NCBI GenBank assembly: GCA_017410375.1
Contig: JAFQQW010000058.1
Span: 9,192 to 73,191 of the forward strand
Origin: Clostridia bacterium
Lineage (GTDB): Bacteria > Bacillota > Clostridia > RGIG6154
Length of the DNA stretch: 64,000 bases
Reading direction: 5' to 3'
Shown: positions 38,407-63,451 of the stretch, piece after piece
Layout of the letters: the number at the start of each line of letters is the position of its first letter
How positions within the stretch are numbered: the stretch's first letter is position 1
Made by a program: the position numbers and the translations under genes
Notes under the pieces: generated by a model
Told to the model about the DNA's origin: nothing
The model's database searches: none
The model's input: the letters and a program-made list of their open reading frames with translations, nothing else

Positions 38407-39591
38407 TTAATCTCTGAAATATAAGTCTCTGGTATACACCTTATCTAAAACATCCGCAATGTCCTCCGAATAGCGGTTTGCCAGAATTACGTCGCTGATT
38501 TCCTTAAACTCTGCCAAATCACGGATTACACGGCTGTTAAAGAATTTGTCATCATGCATGGTCGGCTCATAAATAACCACCTCAATGCCCTTTGCCTTGA
38601 TACGCTTCATAACCCCCTGAATAGAGCTTTGACGGAAATTGTCCGACCCCGCCTTCATGGTCAGACGGTAAATGCCAACCGTCTTGGGTTGCTTTGCGAT
38701 AATCTGGTCTGCAATAAAATCTTTTCGGGTGCCGTTTGCCGCCACAATTGCCGAAATGATGTTTTGGGGCACATCATTGTAGTTTGCAAGCAACTGCTTT
38801 GTGTCTTTGGGCAGACAGTAGCCGCCGTACCCGAAAGAGGGATTGTTATAGTGATTGCCGATTCTGGGGTCTAAGCCAACCCCCTCGATGATGGATTTTG
38901 TGTCTAAATTCCGCACCTGTGCATAGGTATCCAACTCATTAAAGAAAGATACGCGAAGGGCTAAGTAAGTGTTTGCAAAAAGCTTTACCGCTTCTGCCTC
39001 TGTAGGGTTCATGTAGCGGATTTCAATATCCTCTTTTAAAGCCCCGTCTTTTAAAAGACCTGCAAAGGTTTCTGCCGCTTTTCTAAGGCGTGCATTCTTT
39101 ACCGGCACACCCACAATGATACGGCTGGGATACAAATTGTCATAAAGTGCTCTGCCCTCACGCAAAAATTCGGGGCTGAACAAAATGTTGTCACAGCAAA
39201 ATCTTTCCCGCACCGATTCGGTGTAGCCTACCGGCACGGTGGATTTGATAATCATCACCGCATCGGGGTTTACTGCAATCACCTGCTCGATCACACTTTC
39301 TACCGAGGACGTATCAAAATAATTTTTGTTCGGGTCATAATTTGTGGGGGTGGAGATGACAACCATATCCGCATCCTTGTACGCAGACGCCCCGTCTGTG
39401 GTTGCGGTTAAATTCAGTTCTTTTTTGCTTAAATATTCTGCAATTTCCTTGTCCTGAATGGGTGAAATGCGATTGTGAATCATATTCACCTTTTCTTCAA
39501 TAATGTCTACCGCCGTAACGGTATTTTTCTGTGCCAGAAGAACGGCAACCGAAAGTCCTACATACCCGGTGCCTGCAACTGCAATTTTCAT
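38407..39591 (-). CDS. ugd: UDP-glucose 6-dehydrogenase
   Basis: N-terminal [15 protein letters not shown]-binding motif; UDPGDH central and C-terminal regions with the catalytic-Cys context GGYCLPKD. Confidence 0.9.
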
Positions 39592-39733
39592 AAAAACATA
39601 CCTCTTTCTTAAGTTTTCTGCTCTCCCCGCCCGACATCTCTGTGGCGGTTTCAAACAGCCGGTAGGTTTTATGCACTACTCGTCCCTGTGGTGTCTCCTA
39701 TGGCAACGAAAATGCAATGTGCTGTATTAAAAT

Positions 39734-40468
39734 TTATTTTATACCTTTATAATCCTTCTGTACCTGTTCGTAGCTTTCTAAATTGCCGATGTCATAGCGC
39801 TTGCCGGGCATTTCCATGGCATGCACCTTAGTCTGCTGACAAAGCCATGCAATGTAGCTTCCGGGCGCGTCCACACCGCAGCCGTCGTTGATGCCCTTTT
39901 CCACAAGGCGCGCATCGTCCCTGGTATAGAAATAAAAGGGCGGGGTTGCCCAATGGGTTTCGGGATTGGGCGATTTTTCGGTCATTTTCAAAACCAAATC
40001 ATTTTCATCAACGGTTACCACACCGCATTTTAAAAGCTTCTGATCGCTTTCTTCATAGTAACGCATAATGCAGGAGGTCTGCTTTGCTTTTGCGTACTTA
40101 ATAAACTCGGTAAGCGAAAAATCCAACAGATTATCCCCTGCGATAACCAACATATCGTCATCAAGCCCTAATTGATCAATGGTAAACTGAATGTCCTTTA
40201 CCGCCCCTAAGCGGGTTTCATTGGATTCGGTGCCGTCATCCACAACTGTGATTTTCTGGCTCTTTTCAGCCGCCCAGGCATCAAAATGATGGGCAAACTT
40301 GTGGTTGGAAATCACCACATATTCGTCAATCTCACCCAAAGTGTCAATATCGTCAATCAGCCAGTCCAAAATGGTCTTGTCCTGAACCTTTAAAAGAGGC
40401 TTGGGGAAATTTTCGGTTAAAGGATACAGTCTTGTGGCATAGCCTGCCGCTAAAATCAAACATTTCAT
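39734..40468 (-). CDS. sugar-1-phosphate nucleotidyltransferase (NTP_transferase fold)
   Basis: LILAAGYATRLYPLT...PKPLL signature of sugar nucleotidyltransferases; AGGAGTG RBS before the ATG at 40468. Confidence 0.75.
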   Translation of the reverse strand: MKCLILAAGYATRLYPLTENFPKPLLKVQDKTILDWLIDDIDTLGEIDEYVVISNHKFAHHFDAWAAEKSQKITVVDDGTESNETRLGAVKDIQFTIDQLGLDDDMLVIAGDNLLDFSLTEFIKYAKAKQTSCIMRYYEESDQKLLKCGVVTVDENDLVLKMTEKSPNPETHWATPPFYFYTRDDARLVEKGINDGCGVDAPGSYIAWLCQQTKVHAMEMPGKRYDIGNLESYEQVQKDYKGIK

Positions 40469-40473
40469 ATTGT

Positions 40474-41655
40474 TCACACTCCTAATTCTGCACCGTCGGC
40501 ACTGTCACAAAAATGTACCGAGTACTTGCCCTTAAGTTCCGGGAACGCCTTTAAATATTCTTCGCTTACCTGTTGCTCAATTTTTTCTGCAAAGGCAGGG
40601 TCGATAAGCGCCATACAGCACCCCTTAAAGCCTGCACCCGAGAATCTTCCGCCGTAAATACCGTCAGTTTTGGTCATAATTTCATAAAGGGTTTTAAGCT
40701 CGGGCGAGCCGGTTTCCCAATTATAAATGGAAGAATGACCGCTTTCAAAAGAAAGCTTGCCGTAGGTTTCAATATCGCCCTTTCTCCAGGCCTCTGCACC
40801 CCTTTGCACCCGGTCAAATTCGGTGTACCAGTGCTCGGCACGCTTTGCCCAGTTTTCAGGCAGTTTTTCTTTGTATTTCAAATACACTTCATACGGAACG
40901 TGTCTTAAATTCGCTTCTTCAAATTTGCCGTACTCCATACCTGCATACGCCTGCAACGCATACGCCGCCGAACGGCATTCGTCCACTCGCATGTTAAATT
41001 TGGAGCCTGCAAGGGTTCTTTCCACGCCTGAAAACAGCACCATAAGCTTATAGGGCTTCATGTTGGGATTTGTGTCAATCAACTCAAAGCTGTCGTCCAT
41101 TGTATCTAAGTACAAAAGCTTATCCTTTTTGGAAAACACTTCGCAAGACTGGTCCAGCTTACCACAAGAAACACCCACATATTTATTTTCCGCTTCCTTT
41201 GCAGTGAGTATCATTTCAATCGGAGAAAGGGTTACATTGTTCACCTTACAAAGTGCGGACAAAAACGCAATGATAACCGCCGCCGAGGAAGATAAGCCCC
41301 CGATAGGCAAGCTACCCTCAATCACACCGCAAAGCCCGATTTCTAAGTTTCTTCTTTTGGCAAGGGCCAGTGCCGCACCGCGCAGATAATCTGCCCAGTC
41401 GTTCTGCTTTTCCTTTGGAATGGACGATACATGGAACTGCGCACGCTTGTCAAATTGCAGGGAATTTAATTCAATGACCCCGTTCTGTTTGGGACGGTAG
41501 GCGATATGAATGCCCTTGTCAATGGCAAAGCCCGTAATTTTGCCCAACTGATGGTCGCTGTGGGCACCAATGGGGCAAATGCGGTAAGGACAAAAGGCAA
41601 GCGCCTCCGCTTCTCTGTGATAAATTTCAAAAAACTTCTCCTGACATCTCATCAT
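40474..41655 (-). CDS. GHMP-family sugar-1-kinase, galactokinase-like
   Basis: Galactokinase signature R.CPIGAHSDHQLG and GHMP ATP-binding motif PIGGLSSSAAV. Confidence 0.8.
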   Translation of the reverse strand: MMRCQEKFFEIYHREAEALAFCPYRICPIGAHSDHQLGKITGFAIDKGIHIAYRPKQNGVIELNSLQFDKRAQFHVSSIPKEKQNDWADYLRGAALALAKRRNLEIGLCGVIEGSLPIGGLSSSAAVIIAFLSALCKVNNVTLSPIEMILTAKEAENKYVGVSCGKLDQSCEVFSKKDKLLYLDTMDDSFELIDTNPNMKPYKLMVLFSGVERTLAGSKFNMRVDECRSAAYALQAYAGMEYGKFEEANLRHVPYEVYLKYKEKLPENWAKRAEHWYTEFDRVQRGAEAWRKGDIETYGKLSFESGHSSIYNWETGSPELKTLYEIMTKTDGIYGGRFSGAGFKGCCMALIDPAFAEKIEQQVSEEYLKAFPELKGKYSVHFCDSADGAELGV

Positions 41656-41673: not shown

Positions 41674-42741
41674 TTATAAATAGAATTCTTTATACCATTT
41701 TGCAAATTTTCTTAATCCCTCTCGAAGTGACGTGGACGGCTTAAAGCCAAAGTCCGCTTCCAAAGCAGAGGTGTCTGCATAGGTTACCGGCACGTCACCC
41801 GGTTGCATGGGTACTAACTTTTTGTGTGCATCAAAATCAAAATCCTTCGGAAGCACGCCGGCACCTACTAATTCCTGCTGCAGAATATCCACAAAATCCA
41901 GTAAATTTTCGGGTGAGTTGTTGCCGATGTTATATACCGCATAGGGCGGAAGCGGTAAGCCGTCCTCCCCTGCTTTTTTCTCGGGTGCACACGCCATAAC
42001 ACGCATCACACCCTCTACAATATCGTCCACAAAGGTAAAATCACGCTTGCAGTTGCCGAAATTGAAAATTTCAATGGTGTCGCCTTTAATCAGCTTATTG
42101 GTAAAGCCGAAATATGCCATATCGGGACGTCCTGCAGGGCCGTAAACGGTAAAGAACCGAAGCCCCGTGGAAGGAATGTTATAAAGCTTTGAATAGGAGT
42201 GTGCCAGAAGCTCATTGGACTTCTTGGTTGCCGCATACAGCGACACGGGATTGTCCACCTTATCGTCTGTGGAATAGGGAATTTTTTTGTTCGAACCGTA
42301 AACCGAGGAACTGGAGGCATACACCAAATGCTCTACAGGATGGTTTCTGCACGCCTCTAAAATGTTGTAAAACCCGATTAAATTGGACTCAATATACACA
42401 TCGGGATTGGTAATGGAATACCGCACCCCTGCCTGTGCCGCAAGGTTTACCACCACATCAAATTTGTGTTCTTCAAATAAGCCCTCCAGCATCACTTTAT
42501 CTGCAATATTGCCCTTTACAAAGGTCCATTTTGCGTTATGCTTTGCCTGCTCCTTTTCAATTTCGGTTAAACGGTACTCTTTGATAGACACATCATAGTA
42601 ATCGTTCATGTTATCCAACCCCACAATATGCATGGGCGTATCGGTTTTCATGAGCGATAACACCAAATTTGCACCAATAAAGCCTGCCGCACCGGTTACC
42701 AGTATGGTTTTGTTTTCAAAGCTTACATTCTTTTCTCTCAT
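41674..42741 (-). CDS. NAD-dependent epimerase, UDP-glucuronate 4-epimerase-like (Cap1J/GlaE type)
   Basis: TGAAGFIG Rossmann motif, LDNMNDYYD, YxxxK context; next to ugd; TAAGGAGT RBS before the ATG at 42741. Confidence 0.8.
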   Translation of the reverse strand: MREKNVSFENKTILVTGAAGFIGANLVLSLMKTDTPMHIVGLDNMNDYYDVSIKEYRLTEIEKEQAKHNAKWTFVKGNIADKVMLEGLFEEHKFDVVVNLAAQAGVRYSITNPDVYIESNLIGFYNILEACRNHPVEHLVYASSSSVYGSNKKIPYSTDDKVDNPVSLYAATKKSNELLAHSYSKLYNIPSTGLRFFTVYGPAGRPDMAYFGFTNKLIKGDTIEIFNFGNCKRDFTFVDDIVEGVMRVMACAPEKKAGEDGLPLPPYAVYNIGNNSPENLLDFVDILQQELVGAGVLPKDFDFDAHKKLVPMQPGDVPVTYADTSALEADFGFKPSTSLREGLRKFAKWYKEFYL

Positions 42742-42755: not shown

Positions 42756-45725
42756 TCAAAATTCCAACGAACAACCCCACACATCAATGCTGTTGTCCTG
42801 GAACACTTCTTTTAATCGTTTGTGTACGGCTTCCTTGGTCACGCCTTTTTTTAAGATAACCTGTAAGAATCCGCCACCGCCTGCACCGCAGATGAGCTTA
42901 CCGCAAATTAAATCCTCTATGGATGCAAAAATCTGGTCAATCAGGGTATTTGTAGAGCCTGCATCTACCATTTGAGAAAGCTCCCAATGGCGGTTTAACA
43001 GCTTTGCAAACTCGTCCACATTGCCACGTTCTAATTCAAATCGCATGAGCACTGCCACACGCTGAATTTCGTTTAAGGCATACAGCGAATCGGGCTGATT
43101 GCCCACATATCTGCCGACCACATCCCGAAGCAGGTTTCTGGCAAGTCGTCTTTGTCCCGTATAGATTAACGCAAACCGTTCGTTTAATTCCTTTTTGGTT
43201 TGTTCATCAATTTCCACATGCTCTACCTTTAATTGCTGATTAAGTGCAGGACGGGAAGTGATGTATTTAATGCCGCTTGTGACACCGCCCACCTGATCCT
43301 GCCAGCCACCGCCTGTGGACATAATCTGTTCCATGCAAAGCACATGGCTGTAGAGCATATCCTCGGTAAACGCAATGCCCATAAACTCAAACACAGCTTT
43401 CACGCATGCAGCAGACAGAATAGAGGACGTACCAAGTCCCGAGCCTTTGGGTACATTGGTTACCTCGGAATGCATTTCAAACCCACCACCGAGACGGGTT
43501 AAAATCTCCTCTAAATTGTGTCCCTCTTTGGGAATGATACCGCATGCCAGAAGTGCCGCCTTTTGCAACGCAAAGGGGTCATAAGGGTCACCTGTTTGCT
43601 GTAAAGGCTCAATGGTATCAAATTCTCCGTGCACATCCATGTCCCGGCTGTCAAACACAATTTTCTTTTCGGGAATCTTGATTAAAGTCACTTCCACAGG
43701 CTTTTCGCCGTTTAAGAAGATTGCCGCATTTAATACTGTACCGCCGTTTTCCATGCAGTAAGGCGGCGTATCGCTCCAGCCACCGCCCCAGTTGACTCTT
43801 AAGGGCAGTTTTACGGTGTGCTTATCCTTTGCAATTTTACAGGTTTCATTAAATTTAAGATTATTCAGGGTTCCTTTTAAAATGCCCTCCTGAATGGTTT
43901 TAAAGCATTTGGCAATGAATTTTTCACCCTCGGCACCGCCTAAAGCTACACCGATGTAATAGTAAAGACGCATCGCCATAGAGAAATCCGCCTGCGCCAG
44001 TCTGCGCTCTAACCATTCCTGCTGAATGCAGGTTAATTTGTCTGCCTGAAGCAGTTTTTTCGCGTCCTCCGCAGGCACTTTTGCTTTGATAAGCTTGACC
44101 AAACCGTCCATGCAAACCAACTCATGCATGCGCTGATTCCAGTCAATAATGGCTTTGGGGTCTGCATGGTTAAAGCCTGACGATAAGCTTTGTCTTTCCG
44201 CCTTGCGCCATGCCTCTTTATCCCCCTTACCCTGCGCCATAGCATACACGTTAAGTGCTGCTGCAACCGCATCTTTAATGTTGTCGCAAGCAGGATATAA
44301 ATTCGCCATCCATAGGGTATGATTGTCTGACCCCCAGATATCGGTTTCTTTTAAACCGTTTTTCTCTAAAAACACCTCTAAACTCTGTCCAAAGAACATA
44401 TTTTCTTTGGGATTATCGGTCACGCCGTAAATGCGTGCCACAAATTTCCCATCCTTTTGCTTTAAGCCGTGCAGAACCACATTATCAGGCACCGTTTCGT
44501 CATGAATGTCAATGTAAGACAGCACCACATTGTTGCCCACCTTCGCATCATGATGCACATACGAAACCTCTAAATAGCAGTTTTCGCCAATTTCCGCTTC
44601 ATCCGAAAGTACGCTGTTGTAGCCACCTGCATTTTTGGTGATACTGCTATTGACCTGTCTGCTCCAGCCCAAATCCTTGTAATTTTCAACGCCCTCTGCC
44701 ATAAGCTCCATAATTTCACGGGTAGTACCGAAATGAATAAACTTGGCAGGTGCTAAACGCAAAAGCTTCATGCGGAAAGGTCTTAAAGCTTCCCACACCT
44801 TTTGTCTTGCTTCTTTTAATTCTGCACAAAACTCACCTTCGGGTGCTTCATTATAAAACTGTTCCAAAGTAGAGTCGCTCGCCAAAGGATATAAGAAATC
44901 ACCATACAAAGAAAGACGAACCGTTTCGTTTACAAAAGCATCAAATTTACCTTCTTCGGCAATAAGTCCGAAAAGGGCTTTTAACATATCGGCAGAGAAA
45001 ACAACTGCACCGGTATCAATATCTACCGCACCGCGTTCATTCACCGCGCCTTGTTCGGTTAAAGTTTCCACCGTTTGCTTGTGCAGGAATTTACGCACAT
45101 TGCCGTCCTCACCATTTAAAAATACGCCGTGGTTTTTGCCGGTTTGAACATCTTCTTTAAAGGAAATTGCCGCAGCACCTACTCCGGAATAGTCAATCTG
45201 CAGGGGATTAAACAATAGCAAAACATCGCCCGACAAAAGCAACATCCCTTCACGGATGCGCGAAGGCACAGAAGACATACAAATCATAAATTCATCAAAC
45301 AAAGTAGATGCTCTGCCGTCGGGCAAAGTATGAGGTACAGGCGAAAACAGTTTTCCAAGCGCAGAATACTGTGGTACTCGCTTACTGTCACCGCCACTAT
45401 GAATAACCAGAATTTTCAGATTTTTAAAATCAGTTGTTTTTGCGTGTTCCGAAATATATTTCAACACGCCCAAAGTTGCACCGCCCGAGCCGACACGTTT
45501 ACCTTCGGGGTCGGGAATGACCGCAAAATGAGTTTCAGACGGAAGCATACCATTTTTCTGTCTGTCTTCAATTTGCATCATAAACCCCTCTGCCTGCTTT
45601 TGGTTGGATGCAGTAAGCACCACATAATCCCACCCGGCAAATCCGGCTTTGGTCAAAGAGCGGTTATAGTCATCCCAGGTATCTTTATAGGATTGTGATA
45701 AGAAAAGTGATGTCATATTTTTCAT
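42756..45725 (-). CDS. fkp: bifunctional L-fucokinase / fucose-1-phosphate guanylyltransferase, Fkp-like (989 aa)
   Basis: N-terminal FPGT-like domain (GWDYVVLTASNQKQAEGF), C-terminal GHMP kinase (PKGSGLGTSSILSAACV); the length matches the 949-aa Bacteroides Fkp. Confidence 0.75.
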   Translation of the reverse strand: MKNMTSLFLSQSYKDTWDDYNRSLTKAGFAGWDYVVLTASNQKQAEGFMMQIEDRQKNGMLPSETHFAVIPDPEGKRVGSGGATLGVLKYISEHAKTTDFKNLKILVIHSGGDSKRVPQYSALGKLFSPVPHTLPDGRASTLFDEFMICMSSVPSRIREGMLLLSGDVLLLFNPLQIDYSGVGAAAISFKEDVQTGKNHGVFLNGEDGNVRKFLHKQTVETLTEQGAVNERGAVDIDTGAVVFSADMLKALFGLIAEEGKFDAFVNETVRLSLYGDFLYPLASDSTLEQFYNEAPEGEFCAELKEARQKVWEALRPFRMKLLRLAPAKFIHFGTTREIMELMAEGVENYKDLGWSRQVNSSITKNAGGYNSVLSDEAEIGENCYLEVSYVHHDAKVGNNVVLSYIDIHDETVPDNVVLHGLKQKDGKFVARIYGVTDNPKENMFFGQSLEVFLEKNGLKETDIWGSDNHTLWMANLYPACDNIKDAVAAALNVYAMAQGKGDKEAWRKAERQSLSSGFNHADPKAIIDWNQRMHELVCMDGLVKLIKAKVPAEDAKKLLQADKLTCIQQEWLERRLAQADFSMAMRLYYYIGVALGGAEGEKFIAKCFKTIQEGILKGTLNNLKFNETCKIAKDKHTVKLPLRVNWGGGWSDTPPYCMENGGTVLNAAIFLNGEKPVEVTLIKIPEKKIVFDSRDMDVHGEFDTIEPLQQTGDPYDPFALQKAALLACGIIPKEGHNLEEILTRLGGGFEMHSEVTNVPKGSGLGTSSILSAACVKAVFEFMGIAFTEDMLYSHVLCMEQIMSTGGGWQDQVGGVTSGIKYITSRPALNQQLKVEHVEIDEQTKKELNERFALIYTGQRRLARNLLRDVVGRYVGNQPDSLYALNEIQRVAVLMRFELERGNVDEFAKLLNRHWELSQMVDAGSTNTLIDQIFASIEDLICGKLICGAGGGGFLQVILKKGVTKEAVHKRLKEVFQDNSIDVWGCSLEF

Positions 45726-47320: not shown

Positions 47321-48619
47321 TTACCTCCTTTTCAATTTCCGCGTGGTTTTTTGATTAACATAATCTATGATGTAGGGCGAAGCCGGCACCATAAAAAGAA
47401 TACATGTAGGAATGATAAAATTTAACATAACGGGCTGTGCAACATACATAATAAAGAAGATAATATACAAAGCCGTATATTTGCAGTTTAAATTTAATTT
47501 TTCAAACCCCTTTTTGATAGTTTCAGCCATTTTGTAGTAAAAAACACCCATAGCCGCAGTGAACCAAAATCCATATCTTGCCATATCCGAGAACAACTGC
47601 GAATGTTCGTGCACAACATATGTACCGTTGCCCGCCCCCTGATAGTAAGAGCCAACCCCGAGACCATAGGTGTTGAAGAAAGTCTCCAAGTCCCACAGCC
47701 AACGGTCGCTTCGTGCCGCCATATCACCGGTCGCCTCACCGCCAATCAGCGAGCTGCCCATATCATAAACCTTCCAGGATATATAGTGATTTTCAATGTG
47801 TGTTGCCGCTTCCTGTAACCACGCACCAACAACACTTTTAAAAAACAGCAAGAAAGCAAGCGAAAAAATAGTCACCACAAATTTGGTTGCAGGCGTTCTG
47901 TTTTGCAAAATAACCAAAACAGGCGCAAGAAAAGCGCAAACAAAAACAGTACCGGTTGAGCAAATAAGTGCAAGACAAAAACAAATGATAACAATAATCC
48001 AAGCCGCCACTCTCACCCAGCATTTTTTTAAGCATTTGCCTTGTAACATACACAAAAGCATTGTACCGATCAGAATAGAGCAGTAAATATGATGCACATT
48101 ACCGATATTTTTGAAATAGTTTTCCGCTATCATGTCGGTTTGACTTGAAAATTCACGATAGGATGCCGGATTTTCAATAAGACCGAGCAATGTTGTAAAA
48201 AGCGTAAACGCAAATGCAAGAAAAACAACGCACCCCAAAGAACCGAGCGCTTGCTTTTTATCGGTATAATAATAGTAATAGTATACAAGAAATACATACC
48301 ACGGTCCTGCAATCATAATAAACATTTCTGCCGCGTTACCGATACCAAGCAAGGCAAAATATACATATATCCCGATAAAAAGGAATGCCAGCACACCACA
48401 TATTGTTCCGTTAAAAAACCAGTTTGGTCTTAAAAAGTAACTTGTGCAAAACCATCCGCCCATAACGGTTGCCATGATAAGCGTATACAAACCACCCAAA
48501 AGGGGCGCTTGTACAATAGGCACAATCATCAAAAAGATGGATACCATTGCAAAAAAGTAATTGGAAAACAGCCAGAATTTTTCACTGAAATCTGCTTTTC
48601 TTTCCAAATTGTACATCAT
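47321..48619 (-). CDS. wzy: oligosaccharide repeat-unit polymerase, Wzy-like
   Basis: Polytopic membrane protein with one large extracytoplasmic loop, in a wzx-wzy context. Confidence 0.5.
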   Translation of the reverse strand: MMYNLERKADFSEKFWLFSNYFFAMVSIFLMIVPIVQAPLLGGLYTLIMATVMGGWFCTSYFLRPNWFFNGTICGVLAFLFIGIYVYFALLGIGNAAEMFIMIAGPWYVFLVYYYYYYTDKKQALGSLGCVVFLAFAFTLFTTLLGLIENPASYREFSSQTDMIAENYFKNIGNVHHIYCSILIGTMLLCMLQGKCLKKCWVRVAAWIIVIICFCLALICSTGTVFVCAFLAPVLVILQNRTPATKFVVTIFSLAFLLFFKSVVGAWLQEAATHIENHYISWKVYDMGSSLIGGEATGDMAARSDRWLWDLETFFNTYGLGVGSYYQGAGNGTYVVHEHSQLFSDMARYGFWFTAAMGVFYYKMAETIKKGFEKLNLNCKYTALYIIFFIMYVAQPVMLNFIIPTCILFMVPASPYIIDYVNQKTTRKLKRR

Positions 48620-54900: not shown

Positions 54901-56111
54901 TTTAAAATACCTCCCAAAAAGTCTACAATTCGCTTACCCTGCACCTTATAATTCTTTTCATCCAATGCATACCGCTTAGACGCTTCGCCTTTTTCGGCAA
55001 GCACTTGCGCATCCTGCGTCAGAACTGTTTCAATACAGTTCCGGATTGCTTCCGCCGAGTCATTTTCGATTGGATAAATGTAGTCAAAATATGCTTTCGG
55101 GATACCGCCGACTGTTGTAGATGCCACCGTAGTTCCCGAAGTCATGTATTCTAAAATTTTGGACGGGAATGCATAATTGGCGTGGTCTTCATCAGGCGAT
55201 TTTACACTAATCAAAAGGTGTGCCGCCTTTTGATGTTCCAACAAATCCTTTCGGTCAACCTTGCCGAAATAGTGAATGCGACTGTCTTTTGCTTCGCATT
55301 CTTTTATGTAGTCAATCAAATCTCCATAACCAAACAACCATAGATTATAGTCGCCCTCTACCTGCATAAATCCGTCTAAAAGCTTGTCAATATTAAAGCT
55401 TTTGGAAAGGGCACCGGCATACATAACAGTTTTTTTGTCATTCTTAGGTACATCGTCCGTAATATCGAAAATGCTTGCATCGGAAAATCCTTCCACCAAA
55501 ACCGCAGGTTTTTCTTCAATTTTCATTTTCTTTGCCATATGTTCGGTAAGCAGAATATATGAATCAAATCCCGTCTGCAGCTTTACCATTTTGTTGCTGT
55601 AATGGTCAGTCATCAAGGTTTTCAAGCCTTTTGTTTCGTGCATTTTATAAAGGTAAGCCGGCAAATCAGAAATCAGACCGCATGTCTTTGTACCGTATTT
55701 CTTGCCCAACTTCTGTGTTGGCGCGGAATAAGGCGGATACACGCTGTAATTCAAAATCACCTTATCCTTGACATCCTTGTTTTCTTTCAACCATTTTTTC
55801 AATGCTCTGCGTGTACCGATTGCAGCACACATCTGCTTTAAAAACATCAGATTAATGCAGGGAATCCAGGTAACTTCTTTACCGAAATTAAGCTTTTCTT
55901 TACGTTTACCCCAGGCAAACAAGTTGCCACCCGGATATACACTTACGGTAGGCAAAGACACAACCGTAACATCGGCACCTGCTTCTTCCAAGCCTTTAAC
56001 AAGCATATTTTCAAAATTAACCGGTGCGTTGGAAGGTTTTACCTTGCTTTTGACCGCAATATCATCTAATGTCTTGTCGTTAATTAACGAACCCAAGAAA
56101 AATATTTTCAT
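54897..56111 (-). CDS. glycosyltransferase family 4 (GT-B)
   Basis: FPSKILEYMTSG E-x7-E motif region. Confidence 0.75.
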   Translation of the reverse strand: MKIFFLGSLINDKTLDDIAVKSKVKPSNAPVNFENMLVKGLEEAGADVTVVSLPTVSVYPGGNLFAWGKRKEKLNFGKEVTWIPCINLMFLKQMCAAIGTRRALKKWLKENKDVKDKVILNYSVYPPYSAPTQKLGKKYGTKTCGLISDLPAYLYKMHETKGLKTLMTDHYSNKMVKLQTGFDSYILLTEHMAKKMKIEEKPAVLVEGFSDASIFDITDDVPKNDKKTVMYAGALSKSFNIDKLLDGFMQVEGDYNLWLFGYGDLIDYIKECEAKDSRIHYFGKVDRKDLLEHQKAAHLLISVKSPDEDHANYAFPSKILEYMTSGTTVASTTVGGIPKAYFDYIYPIENDSAEAIRNCIETVLTQDAQVLAEKGEASKRYALDEKNYKVQGKRIVDFLGGILK

Positions 56112-56983
56112 ACGTTCTCCTCTTCAAAAAACTGACCGAATTTTTCGTCATATTCAGGCGGATTAAAGGGCACAAGCCCACCACCCGAGTGGAATGTCAA
56201 TTCACTAAACAGAATTTTACCGTTATTTTCATACAAATCCACACGAACAAAACGAAACGGCTTTGCAAGCTTTTCTGCAATTTCCACAAGCTCCGCTTTC
56301 TTTTCGGTAAGCGGATATTCAATATTCGGATACCCGAATTTTACGGGGATTTTTTCAAACTTTTCACTTAAAACATTGGTATACCGTTTGCCGTCTTTAT
56401 TCACATTCTGACAAATCAGCTTCACTTTTCCGTTAAAGCAATACAGCTTGTATTCCGCCAAGCAATCGGAAAAATCAATGTATTTGTCGCACAAAATGCG
56501 CGGCTTGATGTTTTTATAATTCTTTTCTCTGTCTTTGTAATAGAAATTGGTTTTCAGCCACTTATCAAACTTTTGCTTGGCATCCGCCTTATCAAGCTTT
56601 TCCTTATCGGTAACGATAATGTTAAAGCCCGAGGCATGGGTTGCCTTTAATGCAAAGCTTTTAGGCAATTTATCAAAATCAATTTCATCAAAAGAATTGT
56701 AAACGCCCAAAACTTCATTCAAAACCTCTTCGCCGACACATTCTTTCACATAGTTATGTACTTCGTACTTGTCGGTATATTTATCATATCCGTACTTTTC
56801 ATCCTTTAATTTTTCCGCAATGATATGCTGATTAAAGGTTTTTGGATTTTTAATGTCCATCCGCTTACCGAACACAATAAAGTACAAAAGCTTTGAATAA
56901 CTTTCATCGCTCATCAGCTTGGGAAACCGCTGACTGAACTTTATGGTAAGCACTTTAAGTACCATTTTAATTTTCCACAGCAT
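56108..56983 (-). CDS. TupA-like ATP-grasp fold amidoligase (teichuronopeptide-type)
   Basis: About 290 aa; KATHASG...FRFVRVDLY motifs of the ATPgrasp_TupA family. Confidence 0.6.
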   Translation of the reverse strand: MLWKIKMVLKVLTIKFSQRFPKLMSDESYSKLLYFIVFGKRMDIKNPKTFNQHIIAEKLKDEKYGYDKYTDKYEVHNYVKECVGEEVLNEVLGVYNSFDEIDFDKLPKSFALKATHASGFNIIVTDKEKLDKADAKQKFDKWLKTNFYYKDREKNYKNIKPRILCDKYIDFSDCLAEYKLYCFNGKVKLICQNVNKDGKRYTNVLSEKFEKIPVKFGYPNIEYPLTEKKAELVEIAEKLAKPFRFVRVDLYENNGKILFSELTFHSGGGLVPFNPPEYDEKFGQFFEEENV

Positions 56984-56988
56984 ATGTA

Positions 56989-58119
56989 TTAAACCTCGTT
57001 AAAGCAATCCACATATTGCTTGATAATCTCATCAATTTTGAGCTTGGAATCAATAAATGCCTTTGCATTGTTGCAAATTTCGTCATATTCTGCTTGTTCC
57101 ATATCGCAAAAGGCTTCAATCGCCTGCTCAAATTTTTCAGGGGCAGAAAGAGGCAACGCACAACCGCCGTTTGCCTGATTGATTCCGTTCCAGGGTGTGG
57201 TATCGCTGATGATAATGGGACGCTTGTGAATCATACCCTCCACAATGGAGTGTCCGTAATTTTCACCGATGGTAGGCATGTAGTAGGCATGGTACTTTGA
57301 TACCGTTTTGCCCACATCCTCATGGTCTACCGAACCGCAATAGTTCAGCTTCACATTTTCGGGCAGCTGAACTGCAAAGCACTTGTCATAGTATTCTCTG
57401 TTTTCGATGGGCCCGTAAATATCATAGGTTACATTGCCCTTGATATTTTTAAGACGTTCCACACCGTAAAGCAAATTTTTGGTATCCTGAATACGCGCAA
57501 TATAACAAAGTTTTAAATCGCCTTTTTCCTTTGTAATGGGCTTAATCTGGCTGTTATCCGCATAAGAAAAATTGTTGATATTGTAAATATCTTTGGCAGA
57601 AATGCCCATATATTTTACCATATCGTTAAGCTCTTCGTTGCCTGTTGCCTGATATTTTACACCTTTTAAGTACCCAAGCCATTTCAAAGCTTTGGTGTAC
57701 ACCGACTTTTTCAGATAGCCCTGCTTAAAGCGGTTTTCGCAGATTTCACCCCGAGGCGCAATCACAACACCCACATTTTTATGCTTTTTCTTGTATTTCA
57801 AAACGGGAATCACATGATTGTGGCTGAAAAAGCTGTTCTGGTAAATCACATCAGGCTGAACTTCCTCAATAATGGGATAAATATCTTTTCCGGAGGTTTT
57901 GCCGTATGGGCAATAAAATACCTTCCCGAAATCAAAAGTATTCCATCCGTTTTCAATGCCCGGAAGCGGTTTGGAATCCCCTACCTCAAAATTCTGAGAA
58001 ATGATATAAACTTCAAAATCATTTTTGATTGCCTGCACCACATTCATAATGCTCACCGGAGGTCCGCCACCGTTCTTCTGGGGCGGAAACAGCGATGCCA
58101 TAATCAGTAATTTTCTCAT
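56989..58119 (-). CDS. glycosyltransferase family 4 (GT-B)
   Basis: GT-B two-Rossmann layout with a C-terminal EGMIHKRPII-type donor-binding region. Confidence 0.75.
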   Translation of the reverse strand: MRKLLIMASLFPPQKNGGGPPVSIMNVVQAIKNDFEVYIISQNFEVGDSKPLPGIENGWNTFDFGKVFYCPYGKTSGKDIYPIIEEVQPDVIYQNSFFSHNHVIPVLKYKKKHKNVGVVIAPRGEICENRFKQGYLKKSVYTKALKWLGYLKGVKYQATGNEELNDMVKYMGISAKDIYNINNFSYADNSQIKPITKEKGDLKLCYIARIQDTKNLLYGVERLKNIKGNVTYDIYGPIENREYYDKCFAVQLPENVKLNYCGSVDHEDVGKTVSKYHAYYMPTIGENYGHSIVEGMIHKRPIIISDTTPWNGINQANGGCALPLSAPEKFEQAIEAFCDMEQAEYDEICNNAKAFIDSKLKIDEIIKQYVDCFNEV

Positions 58120-58120
58120 T

Positions 58121-59278
58121 TTACTTTCCCTCTTTTACATCTTTAAACAGTTGTTTAAACTGCTCTGCTACTCTTTCTTTTGAATATATTTCTTCTGTCG
58201 CTTTTCTTGCATTTTTGCCCATCTCAAGGCGTTTTTCCTTGTTTTCATACAAATCCAGCACACAGGATGCAATGTCCTTTGCGGTTAAGCTTTCGGGACA
58301 AACCCCTGCATTGTTGTTTATCACGGTATTGTAAAGGTCATTGTCTTTGTTACAAACCGCAAGTATCGGCATACCGCAAGCCATCATGTTGAACGTTTTG
58401 CTGGGCATAAAAAGTTCCGACATTTTATCTTCCTGGGAAACCAAGCCCACATCCCCCGACGCCATAGACATCTGAAAAACATCTTCAGGCTGGTGCGGTA
58501 ACAGTTTTACATTTTCAGCACCATTATCTATTGCCGCCTGCACAAAATCGCAACCGGGACCTTTGCCGATAAACAAAAACAGAATATCTTTTTTATCTTC
58601 CAACGCATTAGCCGATTCCAAAAGAAGCGGAATGTTGTGTCCTAAGCCCAGCTTCCCCGAATACAGCACAACGAATTTTCCCTCTAATCCCTGCTCTTTG
58701 ATGAAGCGGTTTTCTTCTTTTGGGATAGGCTTCATAAAATCAGGGTCGCAAGGATACGGAATCACTGCAATATCCTGCTTTTTCTTTAGTGGCTTGTTGA
58801 TGCTTTTGGCCATTACTTCACCTAATGTCACAATTTTATCAATTTTCGGGAAAGTGCGATTGTTTAAAAAATGCCACCCTTTACAAATCAAATGCACAAC
58901 GGGATTGCCTGTGCTTTTTTCCACCACATGCGGATAAATATCCCAGTTCATAAAAACAAATTTAGATTTGGTCTTTTTCTTACACCACACACCAAGCAAA
59001 CTGTTAATGGGCGGATTGGAAGTAGCATACACCAAATCAAATTGCATATTTTTATTCTGCTTCATAAATTTACGCACATCTTTGCGGTACTTTATCCAGC
59101 AAATAAAACGACTTTTTAACGAGCGAGGGTCATGGGGTGCTGTTTTATGAATTGTAATATTCGGCTGTTCTTTCGGTTCGCTGCCGGTTAAAAGATGCAC
59201 TTCGTCGCCCTCAAAAATTTTAGATAGTTGTTCTACCTCATCAGAACCTAGGTTCTGATTCAACACAAGAACTCTCAT
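58121..59278 (-). CDS. glycosyltransferase family 4 (GT-B)
   Basis: GT4-like C-terminal domain (FMPSKTFNMMACGMPIL). Confidence 0.75.
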   Translation of the reverse strand: MRVLVLNQNLGSDEVEQLSKIFEGDEVHLLTGSEPKEQPNITIHKTAPHDPRSLKSRFICWIKYRKDVRKFMKQNKNMQFDLVYATSNPPINSLLGVWCKKKTKSKFVFMNWDIYPHVVEKSTGNPVVHLICKGWHFLNNRTFPKIDKIVTLGEVMAKSINKPLKKKQDIAVIPYPCDPDFMKPIPKEENRFIKEQGLEGKFVVLYSGKLGLGHNIPLLLESANALEDKKDILFLFIGKGPGCDFVQAAIDNGAENVKLLPHQPEDVFQMSMASGDVGLVSQEDKMSELFMPSKTFNMMACGMPILAVCNKDNDLYNTVINNNAGVCPESLTAKDIASCVLDLYENKEKRLEMGKNARKATEEIYSKERVAEQFKQLFKDVKEGK

Positions 59279-59299
59279 AATTTATCCCACTTTTCTTTT

Positions 59300-60571
59300 T
59301 TATACTTTATCCTCGTTAATTGCCGTCTGATATTTTCCGTTTTTTCCGAGTGCTATATCTTCAACTTGTTCCAGAACAAATTCACCTGCACCAAAGCAAT
59401 CTCTTAAACGATCTAAAAGCTGTTCCCGGTCTGATTCCTCAATTCTGCCAACATATTTTAAAATATAAACATAATTTTTCTTTTGTACCATCTGATACTT
59501 TACGATGCCGGTAAACGGTTCTGTAACCGCCGCCATCATCACATTGCTTACAGCTCTGCCATCTGTTGCAGTTAACTGTCCTGCAACACGCCCGTGCAGT
59601 TGTTCCAATGTTGTAATGGCTCCGCGTTCCTCCAAAGAAACACCCAAGTCGCCCGTGTCGTACCGAATCAACGGCATTGCGCGATTATATAAATCCGTAA
59701 GAACAATTCGTCCGATTTCGCCCGACTCTACAGGTTCATCCGAATCAAGCTTCAGAATTTCAAAATAAATACTTGCCGTATTCAAATATAGCTTCTCTTC
59801 ATACGCCTTTGTAATGCCAAACAAACCGTTCTCTTCGTTGTCATAGCGATTAAAAACAGGACATTCAAAGGCCTGCTCCAGATTCCTTTTAAGCTGTATG
59901 GACAGCATATCCGAATCACATACAATCAATTTAACTTTAAATGCTTTACAATCTATCTTTTCACGTTGTATAAACAGCAGAAACTCTTTCATCGCAGACG
60001 CATAGCCAAACAAAACGCATTTTTTGTGTTTTTTCAGATACAACGCAAGCTCTTTTTTCTTTGCATCATCAAAAGTGGCGATGTTTACATTATAAACATT
60101 CTGCATAAAAGACTTTAGTTTAGACTGCTTATAATTGCTCACCCAGTTCCGGATAAATATGTATTTTGTGCCTAGTTTCCAGCCTATCCGGTTATGACAA
60201 TATACTAAATCACAAACTGTTCGGTTTCGTTTTTCAGCGTTCTGCACCACTTTAAAGGGTGTGCCGGTTGAACCACTGGTATACACCGTGTGTAAGTTTT
60301 GTCCTTCAAATTCATCCGAAAGAAACTCTGTTTCTGCTTTTTCACGGAATTTTAATTTTGTCATAACAGGAAATTCGGACAACTCCGGTGATTTTATATT
60401 CTTATAATAGGGAACATGTGCTATTGTATACTGTAATATTGCTTTTAGTCTGTCCTGTCTTACTAACCCCTGATGTATTGCAATATCTTTATAGCATTTT
60501 CGCTTTTTCCCTTTTCCTAATACAAAATCAGACACCCAGAAACCTGCGTTTCTGAACCATGCACCGAACAT
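59300..60571 (-). CDS. phenylacetate-CoA ligase / F390 synthetase family adenylate-forming enzyme (CapK-like)
   Basis: YTSGSTGTPFKV AMP-binding motif; length and layout of PaaK/CapK. Confidence 0.75.
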   Translation of the reverse strand: MFGAWFRNAGFWVSDFVLGKGKKRKCYKDIAIHQGLVRQDRLKAILQYTIAHVPYYKNIKSPELSEFPVMTKLKFREKAETEFLSDEFEGQNLHTVYTSGSTGTPFKVVQNAEKRNRTVCDLVYCHNRIGWKLGTKYIFIRNWVSNYKQSKLKSFMQNVYNVNIATFDDAKKKELALYLKKHKKCVLFGYASAMKEFLLFIQREKIDCKAFKVKLIVCDSDMLSIQLKRNLEQAFECPVFNRYDNEENGLFGITKAYEEKLYLNTASIYFEILKLDSDEPVESGEIGRIVLTDLYNRAMPLIRYDTGDLGVSLEERGAITTLEQLHGRVAGQLTATDGRAVSNVMMAAVTEPFTGIVKYQMVQKKNYVYILKYVGRIEESDREQLLDRLRDCFGAGEFVLEQVEDIALGKNGKYQTAINEDKV

Positions 60572-60572
60572 A

Positions 60573-61535: not shown

Positions 61536-61538
61536 ACC

Positions 61539-62198
61539 TTACACCTTTTCCTTTTCCAGCTCAGCTTTTCGGATTTGTGCAAAATTGCCTTCGGTGGCAT
61601 TGGTGTTTTCCGAAATGTCACTGCGCTTTAACACCTTCATTGCGGTCATAAAGATAATTTTGATGTCCATCCACATGCTGATGTTTTGCACATATTCCAC
61701 GTCCAGCTTAAAACGATCCTCCCAGTTCACGCTGTTTCTGCCGTTCACCTGCGCCCATCCGGTAAGACCGGGACGCACATCGTGCCGATGGCGTTCGGTT
61801 TCGTTGTACCAGGGCAGGTATTCCACCAACAAAGGTCTCGGACCTACAATGGAGATATCGCCTTTTAAGATGTTAATTAAAGAGGGCAACTCATCGCATG
61901 AAGTCGAACGTAAAAATTTGCCATACTTATTCAGGCGCACCTCGTCGGGCAGGAGATTGCCGTCTTTATCTTTGGCATTGGACATGGTGCGGAATTTTAA
62001 AAGCTTAAAAATCTTTTCCTCACCGGTCTTTTTATCAATTTTACCGGGTCGCATTTGGGTAAAGAACGGATTTCCGCGCATAGCAATGGCACCGACAATC
62101 GTAAAAATCAACAGAAACGGCGACAAACACACCAGTGCGATAAAAGAAAGCAAAATATCCAAAAATCGTTTAAAAAACTTTGCGTACAAACTGAACAC
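61539..62198 (-). CDS. undecaprenyl-phosphate sugar phosphotransferase, small PglC/WecP-like initiating transferase
   Basis: Single N-terminal TM then the Bac_transf core (DELPSLINILKGDISIVGPRP). Confidence 0.85.
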   Translation of the reverse strand: MFSLYAKFFKRFLDILLSFIALVCLSPFLLIFTIVGAIAMRGNPFFTQMRPGKIDKKTGEEKIFKLLKFRTMSNAKDKDGNLLPDEVRLNKYGKFLRSTSCDELPSLINILKGDISIVGPRPLLVEYLPWYNETERHRHDVRPGLTGWAQVNGRNSVNWEDRFKLDVEYVQNISMWMDIKIIFMTAMKVLKRSDISENTNATEGNFAQIRKAELEKEKV

Positions 62199-62203
62199 TC
62201 CTC

Positions 62204-63451
62204 TTATTCAAAACAGCTTCTGATGATTTCAATCACAACATCCTGCTCCTGCTCTGTCATACGGATATCGCTGGGCAAGCACAGACCACGATGGAAAATA
62301 TCCTCGCCCACTTCAGAATAGTCGCCCGATGCAATGTAGGCATTGGTACGGCATCTGCCGTCGCCCGTCGCGGTTACATAGGGATTCATGCGGAAGATGG
62401 GTTGCATATGCATGGGCTTCCAGATGGGTCTGCCCTCTGCATTGTATTTGGCAAGTGCCTCTAAAATTTCTGTGGGACAGCTTTTTCCGCTTTCGGGAAT
62501 GAAAAGTGCCTCGCTGTCACTTCTGACCTGCTTGCACATAGCATCTTCGTCAATCAAAAGGCAGGACAGCCAGAAGTTCGGTTCGCATTCTTCGGGATTA
62601 TAGGGATTCATCGAAACGGGCAAATCCTTTAATCCCTCTTTGTAGCGCATATAAATTGCCTTTTTCTTGGCAATATGTTCTTCCAAGTACGGAAGCTGAC
62701 CGCGTACAACCCCCGCAATCACGTTGGACATGCGGTAATTGTAGCCGATTTCCTCATGCTGATACCAGGGTGCATTCTCACGGCTCTGGGTAGACCATTT
62801 GCGCGCACGGTTTGCCGCTTCCAAATCGTCGGTTAAGAGCATACCGCCCGAAGAGCCGGTTATAATTTTGTTGCCGTTAAAGCTGATGGCATTATATGTA
62901 CCGAATGTACCTGTCTGCACACCCTTATAAGAAGCACCAAAGGATTCTGCCGCGTCCTCAATTAAAATTGCACCGTGCTTTTCACAGACTGCCTTGATTT
63001 CATCCATTTTGGCAGGTGTGCCATATAGGTTTACGCTCACAACCACCTTTACATCCGGATACATCTCAAAGGCTTTTTCCAACGCCACCGGGTCCATGTT
63101 CCAGGTATCCCGTTCCGAATCAATAAATATCGGGATGCCCCCCTCATACACAACCGGGTTTACGGTTGCACTGAAAGTCATGTCCGAGCAGAACACATAA
63201 TCGCCTTTTTTAATGCCTGCAAGCTTCATGCAAAGGTGCAGTGCCGCAGTTCCGGCAGACAAAGCCACTGCATACTTGCAACCGATTTTTTCTGCCGCAA
63301 GGCGTTCCACCTCATTGATATTCTTGCCAACCGTAGACATCCAGTTGGTTTCGTACGCCTCTGTCACATATTGAATCTCTTCGCCGTGCATGCATGGCGA
63401 AGCAAGCCAGATTCGATTTTCGAACGGCTTGAACGCTTTTGTATGTGCCAT
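62204..63451 (-). CDS. DegT/DnrJ/EryC1/StrS-family PLP-dependent sugar aminotransferase
   Basis: Fold-type I aminotransferase with SxNGNK(I/L) lysine region (ISFNGNKIIT); first gene of the operon, GGGGG RBS. Confidence 0.9.
   Translation of the reverse strand: MAHTKAFKPFENRIWLASPCMHGEEIQYVTEAYETNWMSTVGKNINEVERLAAEKIGCKYAVALSAGTAALHLCMKLAGIKKGDYVFCSDMTFSATVNPVVYEGGIPIFIDSERDTWNMDPVALEKAFEMYPDVKVVVSVNLYGTPAKMDEIKAVCEKHGAILIEDAAESFGASYKGVQTGTFGTYNAISFNGNKIITGSSGGMLLTDDLEAANRARKWSTQSRENAPWYQHEEIGYNYRMSNVIAGVVRGQLPYLEEHIAKKKAIYMRYKEGLKDLPVSMNPYNPEECEPNFWLSCLLIDEDAMCKQVRSDSEALFIPESGKSCPTEILEALAKYNAEGRPIWKPMHMQPIFRMNPYVTATGDGRCRTNAYIASGDYSEVGEDIFHRGLCLPSDIRMTEQEQDVVIEIIRSCFE

Follow-up and report, generated by a model that had tools for sequence, protein, structure and literature searches.

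A Wzx/Wzy-type gene cluster in a Clostridia bacterium that probably directs the synthesis of a complex, acidic and decorated surface polysaccharide

In strain ATCC 14579 of Bacillus cereus, the enzymes Pat and Pyl, which make UDP-yelosamine, are encoded directly upstream of a small phosphoglycosyl transferase (PGT), a neighbourhood described as recurring in PGT cluster 24 (PMC11626204). Pat and Pyl correspond to BC5273 and BC5272 (PMC4595770), and the B. cereus dehydratase characterized to date, Pdeg (Bc3750), is encoded away from their cluster, BC5263-BC5279 (PMC4514872; PMC4595770). Enzymes that decorate a glycan have been described in two further systems. In Campylobacter jejuni, the ATP-grasp enzyme Cj1438C, which is TupA-like, amidates the carboxylate of glucuronic acid (GlcA) with serinol phosphate or ethanolamine phosphate before chain extension (PMC11800379). 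In Vibrio cholerae, the PaaK/CapK-like protein VpsH is genetically needed for the addition of glycine to N-acetylgulosaminuronic acid (GulNAcA) of the lipid-linked Vibrio polysaccharide (VPS) disaccharide and is dispensable for chain growth (PMC13463779). Here we describe a locus that carries genes for comparable enzymes, at positions 38407-63451 of a 64,000-nucleotide stretch of DNA from an uncultured gut Clostridia bacterium (assembly GCA_017410375.1, contig JAFQQW010000058.1, positions 9,192 to 73,191 of the forward strand). This whole stretch is referred to below as the window.

Judged from sequence comparison, the locus is probably a Wzx/Wzy-type biosynthesis cluster for a complex, acidic, decorated surface polysaccharide. 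An earlier note, made from the letters of the window alone, had interpreted it as a single operon for an amino-acid-decorated and pyruvylated acidic heteropolysaccharide. Domain searches for the ATP-grasp, CapK, pyruvyl-transferase and Fkp families had been set beforehand as a refuting test; all four families were recovered, and the interpretation is supported. As a system type, this is a polysaccharide locus of a familiar and already well-known kind.

Twenty-one successive open reading frames (ORFs), numbered here g1 to g21, run on the minus strand from position 63451 down to 38407 in the ORF listing of the window, in agreement with the roughly 21 genes counted before. The gene junctions mostly overlap or lie no more than 36 nt apart. 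With the likely starts, three spacers exceed 100 nt, namely 53810-53985 (176 nt), 52952-53074 (123 nt, between g10 and g11) and 39592-39733 (142 nt, between g20 and g21), so that the claim of overlapping or touching junctions holds for most of the locus and fails at these three places. The spacer lengths and the starts of g2 and g11 follow independent gene calls on separate contigs and assemblies. The likely start of g21 is the ATG at 39591, after AAGAAAGAGG. The signals at the two ends of the run are as follows.

63524..63552, minus strand: sigma-70-type promoter, TTGACA-17-TATAAT with a TG extension, read from the sequence
38378..38406, minus strand: intrinsic terminator, AGCGGAGC-GAAA-GCTCCG followed by T8, read from the sequence

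The promoter (63552-63524) was the sole 12/12 match to TTGACA-17-TATAAT in the 20 kb scanned, and it leaves a leader of approximately 65 nt before the g1 ATG. The terminator stands 3' of the last stop codon and consists of an 8-bp GC-rich stem, a GAAA loop and a T8 tail; the hairpin at 38378-38406 is also listed for the plus strand. Both signals had been proposed at these positions, and both were borne out. A terminator scan found no strong intrinsic terminator on the minus (coding) strand within the cluster, and an Rfam scan of the whole window returned no riboswitch or antitermination RNA match. The genes downstream bear no relation to polysaccharide synthesis and encode a membrane protein of the YgjV family, a sugar ABC transporter, GH43 and GH78 enzymes and GalT. 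Upstream lies a repeat-rich intergenic region, and before it the terminator of an unrelated 1663-aa gene, seen on L083, a longer contig from this organism. Because the genes on both sides are unrelated and a terminator stands upstream, the operon boundaries given earlier are right.

The locus is most likely transcribed mainly from the one strong promoter. An organization into several transcription units, in which promoters in the gaps of 123-176 nt (before g10/g11 and before ugd) would allow the sugar-supply genes to be expressed independently, appears rather unlikely. It is favoured by the gaps of 176, 123 and 142 nt themselves, by 9/12 promoter-like matches at 53997-53969 and 53008-52980, and by the kinase-nucleotidyltransferase-epimerase cassette (with Ugd in three of four cases), which is conserved as a unit of its own and stands at the end of different loci. 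In addition, the comparable eps1 region of B. cereus forms several units by reverse transcription-PCR (PMC6976573). However, weak 9/12 matches were not above their frequency in shuffled sequence (43 observed vs 49.9 expected), and the locus shows one perfect promoter and one canonical terminator only. The largest gap is no designed intergenic region either: since 53810-53985 is the decayed 5' part of the disrupted gene g10, it was dropped as an internal promoter region.

The first three genes of the run form the module that most resembles the B. cereus neighbourhood.

62204..63451, minus strand: g1, pyridoxal phosphate (PLP)-dependent sugar 4-aminotransferase (PglE/Pat-like, DegT family); PF01041, 277 bits
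61539..62189, minus strand: g2, small monotopic phosphoglycosyl transferase (PglC type, 216 aa), putative initiating enzyme; PF02397, 194 bits
60573..61535, minus strand: g3, ATP-grasp carboxylate-amine ligase with a PylC-like N domain; PF21360, PF02655

The first two are the DegT aminotransferase and the small PglC-type transferase that had been predicted. The best solved relatives of g1 are 1o61 and 4ztc (E=3e-72), which we take to be C. jejuni PglE, and at family level g1 matches a putative UDP-4-keto-6-deoxy-N-acetylhexosamine 4-aminotransferase. The PF02397 match of g2 spans the whole 179-position profile, and the protein has one N-terminal hydrophobic segment. For g3, a score of 523 bits was obtained with NF009406 (cutoff 271), together with a match to PDB 2pn1 (E=2.9e-84), a structure solved without a known function.

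The module was compared among 80 Clostridia and Bacilli loci, obtained from a scan of species-representative genomes with g3 as the query. A g1 homologue was present in 68 and a g2 homologue in 74 of these loci, and beyond g1-g3 almost no other gene of the operon was common to them. Given this conserved trio, the ATP-grasp enzyme is assigned to the 4-amino sugar. Directly upstream of the aminotransferase gene, 36 of the 80 loci carry a PglF/CapD-type membrane UDP-GlcNAc 4,6-dehydratase (PF02719, 420 bits), which supports a 4-amino-dideoxyhexose as the first sugar. The first sugar named in the earlier note is thus strengthened by the relatives and left with a missing step at home, where no 4,6-dehydratase was found in the window. 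We regard this local absence as an evidence gap and not as a contradiction, because the characterized B. cereus dehydratase is likewise encoded away from the Pat/Pyl cluster.

Both this locus and B. cereus eps1 (BC5263-BC5279) are Firmicutes surface-polysaccharide loci in which a DegT-family 4-aminotransferase, an ATP-grasp ligase and a small monotopic PGT (Q814Z7 in B. cereus) are encoded side by side; g3 is likened to Pyl by family and gene neighbourhood. The order differs, with aminotransferase-PGT-ligase here and Pat-Pyl-PGT in B. cereus, and the present locus additionally has two further ligases and genes for pyruvylation, uronic acids and salvage. Pyl reportedly attaches 2-oxoglutarate to the 4-amine. 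By analogy, we propose that g3 acts as an N-acylase of the 4-amino sugar, and the first residue is probably a 4-amino sugar that carries an N-acyl group.

Many of the compared loci (L003-L082) have an insert between the PGT gene and the ATP-grasp gene: a GNAT gene in 21 loci, a PALP-family PLP enzyme in 21, an Orn/DAP-type decarboxylase in 11 and a class I/II aminotransferase in 5. The acyl or amine partner is probably not the same in all loci, and the variable inserts look like a family of related, chemically different first-sugar decorations. The inserts also bear on a different role for g3, which we consider unlikely, namely that it amidates a uronic-acid carboxylate, as g7 and g4 may do, or builds a peptide or amine side chain, while the first sugar keeps a free or otherwise modified 4-amino group in a zwitterionic polymer like polysaccharide A (PSA) of Bacteroides. 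A PLP decarboxylase, PALP enzyme, class I/II aminotransferase or GNAT protein encoded beside the ATP-grasp gene in many loci would suggest a tailored amine or amino-acid substrate. However, the tight, near-universal linkage of g3 is with the aminotransferase and PGT genes and not with those for uronic acids, and the only characterized neighbourhood of this kind, Pat/Pyl/PGT, acylates the 4-amine. N-acylation of the first sugar by g3 is therefore preferred.

Two further genes encode enzymes that may decorate the glycan.

59300..60571, minus strand: g4, CapK/PaaK-like adenylate-forming enzyme; PF27533 CapK_C, PaaK relatives in the PDB
56108..56983, minus strand: g7, TupA-like ATP-grasp amidoligase (291 aa); PF14305

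The PF14305 match of g7 reached 157 bits against a cutoff of 25 and covers profile positions 5-240 of 241, so that g3 and g7 account for the two ATP-grasp ligases predicted. The CapK-like enzyme was recovered as g4, which carries the PaaK-type motifs TSGSTGTPFK and RYDTGD; PF27533 CapK_C is precomputed for it and for most of the homologues listed, and its match to the AMP-binding family PF00501 is partial and below the cutoff.

Like Cj1438 of the C. jejuni HS:2 locus, g7 belongs to PF14305, the fold reported for Cj1438C, the C-terminal amidoligase part of that capsule enzyme, and lies among glycosyltransferase genes in a uronic-acid locus. By analogy, g7 is proposed to amidate a uronic-acid carboxylate on the growing glycan. 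Unlike Cj1438, it stands alone, with no GT2 fusion. The C. jejuni capsule follows an ABC-transporter pathway, whereas the present locus is of the Wzx/Wzy type, and no serinol-phosphate or ethanolamine-phosphate genes were seen here. Characterized relatives of these ligases use 2-oxoglutarate, serinol phosphate or ethanolamine phosphate, or glycine. The earlier note had proposed the addition of amino acids or organic acids; amide decoration is well supported, and an amino acid is one substituent option among several.

g4 is a strain-variable accessory gene. In a related strain (L084; GCA_054267915.1, JAZLSW010000129.1), approximately 76 nt replace the 1.36-kb segment that holds g4 (59226-60585). 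The identity between this strain and the window is 97% over g1-g3 and 93% over g5-g6, a drop that suggests recombination breakpoints inside the locus. Among the 80 loci, a g4 homologue follows the ATP-grasp gene in four only. By analogy, VpsH is the best functional lead for g4. As in the V. cholerae VPS system, the gene for a PaaK/CapK-like enzyme belongs to a uronic-acid-producing exopolysaccharide locus of the Wzx/Wzy type; V. cholerae can do without the modification, and g4 varies in presence between strains here. Unlike VpsH, g4 adjoins the ATP-grasp gene g3 and not a uronic-acid transferase gene, and because of this it may act instead on the acyl group of the first sugar.

The glycosyltransferase genes lie in the middle part of the locus.

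58121..59278, minus strand: g5, GT4 (WcaI-like); PF00534, PF13692; NF007640 115 bits, below cutoff
56989..58119, minus strand: g6, GT4; PF00534, PF13692
54897..56111, minus strand: g8, GT4; PF13692, PF00534
53986..54900, minus strand: g9, GT-A-fold GT8-like glycosyltransferase, probably retaining; invariant DSD at residues 107-109
53075..53973, minus strand: g10, disrupted GT-D-like gene; homologue alignment, tblastn
52037..52951, minus strand: g11, GT-A glycosyltransferase (weak GT2/GNT-I-like); PF00535 27.6 bits, PF03071 25.7 bits
50919..52037, minus strand: g12, GT4; PF00534, PF13692, PF13439

The four GT4 genes counted before were confirmed by PF00534 and PF13692 as g5, g6, g8 and g12, which are mutually dissimilar. 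Homologues of g7 and g8 accompany a g6 homologue in six of the seven loci that carry one. Two further glycosyltransferase-like genes had also been proposed. This was correct for g11; the GT-D-like g10 proved to be disrupted, and a true glycosyltransferase, g9, had been left unassigned. g9 has a GT-A fold with a DXD-type motif and is a GT-A/GT8-like glycosyltransferase of a rare family not in Pfam. In all, four GT4, one GT2-like and one GT8-like GT-A gene are intact and one GT-D-like gene is disrupted.

The 3' three-quarters of g10 persist as an ORF of 238 or 244 aa (53075-53791/53809), and its 5' remnant is a 75-aa ORF in another frame (53746-53973). By tblastn, the frame is broken and the conserved RFGxxE region is cut by an in-frame TAA at 53819-53821. 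Homologues of g10 are 310-330 aa long and align from their residue ~72 onward; a full-length homologue matched PF22882 GT-D-like with 28.5 bits (cutoff 27). The lesion is identical in an independent assembly.

The next pair of genes would account for pyruvylation.

49753..50922, minus strand: g13, polysaccharide pyruvyl transferase; PF04230 86 bits, weak CsaB/WcaK matches
48629..49741, minus strand: g14, FrhB/FdhB-like Fe-S protein, putative redox partner of g13; PF04432, PF04422, Fer4 families

Two CxxCxxCxxxC motifs (2x[4Fe-4S]) are present in g14. In relatives, PS_pyruv_trans, two 4Fe-4S motifs and FrhB_N/C are fused in proteins of 778 aa (L009, 16803-19139) and 743 aa (L088, 1230-3461), and because they form single polypeptides there, a shared function of g13 and g14 is supported. 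The pattern suggests that many polysaccharide pyruvyl transferases may work with a redox partner. The pairing of a pyruvyl transferase with an F420-dehydrogenase-like protein, as predicted, was thus found both as adjoining genes here and as fusions elsewhere. A literature search on the pyruvyl-transferase/F420-like pairing gave nothing informative.

Export and polymerization are assigned to two membrane proteins.

47321..48619, minus strand: g15, candidate Wzy polymerase; ~9-10 membrane segments (hydropathy), position
45759..47318, minus strand: g16, Wzx-type flippase (MOP/PST superfamily); ~12-14 membrane segments, weak MatE match

A jackhmmer search with g16 returned approximately one protein of 430-515 aa in each of at least 15 loci, and five of the six tested matched PF01943 Polysacc_synt, four of them above the cutoff. 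With g15, jackhmmer found no homologue in the 80 related loci. Of the Wzx and Wzy proteins named in the earlier note, the flippase therefore gains support from its PF01943-linked relatives, whereas the polymerase is a candidate by topology and position. Some related loci carry upstream the candidate genes for a chain-length regulator/tyrosine kinase, phosphatase or LCP ligase (protein clusters 21, 22 and 24), of which only cluster 21 was recognizable, by sequence, as a CpsB-like phosphatase.

Considering the kind of polymer that is made, a wall-bound secondary cell-wall or teichuronic-type polymer (e.g. a pyruvylated surface-protein anchor), in place of a capsule or released exopolysaccharide (EPS), is improbable. 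Among NCBIfam models, g13 best matches CsaB, the pyruvyl transferase associated with S-layers, g8 is weakly TuaC-like, no capsule-type tyrosine-kinase module is present, and very large putative surface proteins are encoded on both sides, all of which would fit a wall polymer. However, the CsaB and TuaC matches are all weak, that of g13 lying far below the cutoff, neither an SLH-domain protein nor an LCP ligase was seen in the window, and Wzx/Wzy loci with such gene content are typical of capsular polysaccharide or EPS.

Three genes would supply activated sugars.

42756..45725, minus strand: g17, Fkp-like sugar-1-kinase/sugar-1-phosphate guanylyltransferase (GDP-L-fucose salvage type); PF07959 313 bits, GHMP N and C
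41674..42741, minus strand: g18, UDP-glucuronate 4-epimerase-type short-chain dehydrogenase/reductase (SDR); motif and PDB matches
38407..39591, minus strand: g21, UDP-glucose 6-dehydrogenase (Ugd); all three UDPG_MGDP_dh domains

The predicted Fkp-like enzyme was recovered as g17, which has both Fkp domains in one polypeptide and matches Bacteroides fragilis FKP (5yys, E=8.5e-71); with NF009948 it scored 483 bits against an equivalog cutoff of 721, so its sugar specificity is not assured. As in the Fkp and PSA loci of B. fragilis (WcfR/WcfS and the pyruvyl transferase WcfO), a bifunctional Fkp-type salvage enzyme goes together with a PglC-type start on a 4-amino-6-deoxy sugar and a pyruvylated surface polysaccharide of a gut commensal. 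Unlike in B. fragilis, where fkp is presumably separate from the capsule loci, g17 lies inside the operon, and the host is a Clostridia bacterium.

The two enzymes proposed for uronic-acid supply, Ugd and a UDP-GlcA 4-epimerase, were both upheld. g21 matched 3phl (E=1.9e-176) and 1dli (E=4e-139), with both alignments starting from residue 17-22. g18 matched 5u4q (E=4.5e-109) and the B. cereus UDP-GlcA 4-epimerase 6zl6 (E=3e-41), and its catalytic region reads VYASSSSVYG...YAATK, without the [ST]DE dehydratase Asp-Glu pair; a published motif table separates epimerase from 4,6-dehydratase SDRs (PMC8987622). We also considered g18 as the missing 4,6-dehydratase, as the best NCBIfam name is dTDP-glucose 4,6-dehydratase and the title of 5u4q reads likewise. 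This was rejected, both having SSSSVYG/YAATK and no [ST]DE.

A second kinase and a nucleotidyltransferase complete the sugar-activation genes.

40474..41655, minus strand: g19, GalK-family GHMP sugar-1-kinase; PF10509, PF00288, PF08544
39734..40468, minus strand: g20, sugar-1-phosphate nucleotidylyltransferase, partner of g19; PF00483 90.7 bits

The earlier note had called this pair a GalK-like kinase and a nucleotidyltransferase. The GHMP domains and the PF00483 match agree with it; a galactokinase signature is absent. g19 fell below the cutoffs of all five galactokinase models, and in the alignment it has IGAHSDH where the Pyrococcus and human GalK proteins have IGEHTDY. With the GEHxDY signature replaced and the five models below cutoff, g19 was rejected as a canonical galactokinase. 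The sequence G-A-H-(S/V)-D-H is common to all 120 of the 120 retrieved homologues, which keep the catalytic GKLDQ. The family is very abundant, with ~76-80% identity over more than 100 clusters, and its sequences are entries from metagenomes or metagenome-assembled genomes (MAGs) named Clostridia or Clostridiales. In four loci (L085-L088), the kinase gene is directly followed by genes for a 244-aa nucleotidyltransferase and a g18-like epimerase, and in three of the four Ugd comes after this cassette, at the ends of otherwise different polysaccharide clusters.

In GalK, the Glu of the signature contacts the C6 hydroxyl of galactose and the Asp reads the galacto C4 hydroxyl; the loss of Glu with retention of Asp in g19 fits a substrate with a C6 carboxylate. 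In the Arabidopsis galacturonokinase GalAK, Ala-41 is said to occupy the position of the GalK Glu, and its replacement, A41E, reportedly abolishes activity (work by Yang et al. in 2009). Like plant GalAK and the UDP-sugar pyrophosphorylase (USP), g19 and g20 pair a GalK-family GHMP sugar-1-kinase with a nucleotidyltransferase, and the Glu of GEHxDY is Ala in g19, as is reported for plant GalAK. Unlike plant GalAK, g19 is bacterial and encoded in a polysaccharide operon, and g20 is a small enzyme of RmlA/GalU type, not USP. The literature searched mentions galacturonokinase in plant and zebrafish contexts only. The predicted model of g19 is moderate (pLDDT 74).

On this basis we suggest, tentatively and as a reading that falls somewhat short of an even chance, that g19 and g20 may constitute a uronic-acid 1-kinase/nucleotidyltransferase salvage route to UDP-galacturonic acid (UDP-GalA) or UDP-GlcA, parallel to the Ugd/epimerase route. 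GlcA, L-arabinose or another sugar could alternatively be the substrate of g19. It is a slightly more speculative proposal that, jointly, g19/g20 are a D-galacturonate 1-kinase pair, the coat is built with the help of the Fkp-like g17 from pectin galacturonate and host or dietary fucose, and g9 founds a GT8-like family. A gene at 24363-25523 beside GalT was tried as a Leloir GalK and rejected, as its translation is not a GHMP kinase.

Collectively, these assignments lead to a proposed pathway, each step of which we infer from homology and gene neighbourhood. g1 (PglE/Pat-like) would aminate C4, g3 would attach a carboxylic acid to the C4 amine with ATP, as B. cereus Pyl does with 2-oxoglutarate, and g2 would move the sugar-1-phosphate onto undecaprenyl phosphate. 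The unit would then be extended by the six intact glycosyltransferases, that is, the four GT4 enzymes, the GT8-like g9 and the GT2-like g11. UDP-GlcA and UDP-GalA would be formed de novo by Ugd (g21) and the 4-epimerase (g18), and probably also by salvage via g19 and g20, and g17 would supply a GDP-sugar, probably GDP-L-fucose from scavenged fucose. g7 would turn uronic-acid carboxylates into amides, as would g4 in the strains that carry it, and g13 would add a pyruvate ketal with the Fe-S protein g14. Finally, g16 would flip the unit across the membrane and g15 would polymerize it.

Several observations weigh against a functional Wzx/Wzy locus of this kind. No 4,6-dehydratase lies within the 64-kb window, where tblastn with PglF/CapD gave a weak match to g18 only, which was rejected as a PglF/CapD homologue. 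The Wzy assignment of g15 is without sequence support, as no family matched it even at E=1. One glycosyltransferase gene, g10, is broken, and the three internal gaps of 123-176 nt could house promoters (weak 9/12 matches). Gram-positive loci typically have a module of chain-length regulator/tyrosine kinase and phosphatase together with an LCP ligase, and no chain-length regulator/tyrosine kinase, phosphatase or LCP ligase was found within the operon or over 38 kb of downstream and 6 kb of upstream sequence (the latter in L083); such genes may lie elsewhere in the genome. Decay or inactivity of the locus in this strain, as the frame break and stop codon in g10 and the local absence of a dehydratase and a chain-length regulator might suggest, is nevertheless very unlikely, for the remaining 20 ORFs are uninterrupted, have good ribosome-binding sites and are conserved to 99.7-100% across independent assemblies, both the promoter and the terminator are perfect, and the B. 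cereus Pdeg is likewise encoded outside the Pat/Pyl cluster.

The G+C content is 0.40-0.41 in 44000-60000, the core with the glycosyltransferase, Wzy and Wzx genes, vs up to 0.485 in most of the remaining window. Lower G+C is common in variable glycan loci, and the low central value would fit horizontal exchange affecting the variable part of this locus. The operon proteins are identical in sequence to those with the locus tags IJE10_* in an NCBI MAG named Clostridia bacterium, and they recur on ENA and Logan metagenome contigs. The nearest species-level relatives of g3, with up to 78% identity, are gut MAGs that include unclassified Clostridia, Faecousia, Acutalibacteraceae, Oscillospiraceae and Lachnospiraceae.

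Directly downstream of the locus, a minus-strand glycan-utilization block (26851-37453) encodes a sugar ABC transporter (binding protein, permease and ATPase), a GH43 enzyme and a GH78 alpha-L-rhamnosidase, along with an EEP-family protein, a metallo-beta-lactamase-fold protein and GalT. That plant-glycan foraging genes neighbour genes for salvage-type sugar activation may not be mere coincidence. Between the GH78 gene and GalT lies a small DUF559/MTES_1575 endonuclease-like gene (28428-28832, minus strand). Two very large ORFs stand on either side, one of 1660 aa at 19154-24136 (minus strand), with an N-terminal Cu_amine_oxidN1 domain, and one of 1663 aa at L083:284-5275, with no Pfam match. 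The Cu_amine_oxidN1 domain is typical of Clostridia surface proteins, and the two large ORFs may encode giant surface proteins.

Just upstream of the promoter, approximately 2.5 tandem copies of a ~207-nt unit occupy 63555-64000 and continue in L083:5570-6050. In each unit, a promoter-like TTGCAA-17-TACAAT precedes a long, imperfect hairpin of 26 bp (arms 63731-63756 and 63764-63789), and the fold has a z-score of -4.1. It matched no Rfam family, and no further copy was found elsewhere in the window; the related strain L084 apparently has one copy fewer. The repeats might constitute an array of small-RNA genes, serve as a regulatory element or stem from a local duplication.

Surface polysaccharides shape immune recognition, phage sensitivity and colonization, and to our knowledge those of gut Clostridia are almost uncharacterized. 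For the present locus, the predicted repeat unit is testable: an N-acyl-4-amino sugar, amidated GalA/GlcA, fucose and a pyruvate ketal. Points of interest are the Pat/Pyl-like initiation trio in gut Clostridia, the three carboxylate-amine ligases (of which one varies between strains), the rare family of GT8-like enzymes to which g9 belongs, and the candidate galacturonokinase cassette beside an in-operon Fkp-like enzyme. The cassette and the Fkp-like enzyme suggest that the surface coat is made partly from scavenged dietary or host sugars. If the GAHSDH kinase is indeed a bacterial galacturonokinase, the bacterium would build dietary pectin sugars and fucose directly into its surface coat.

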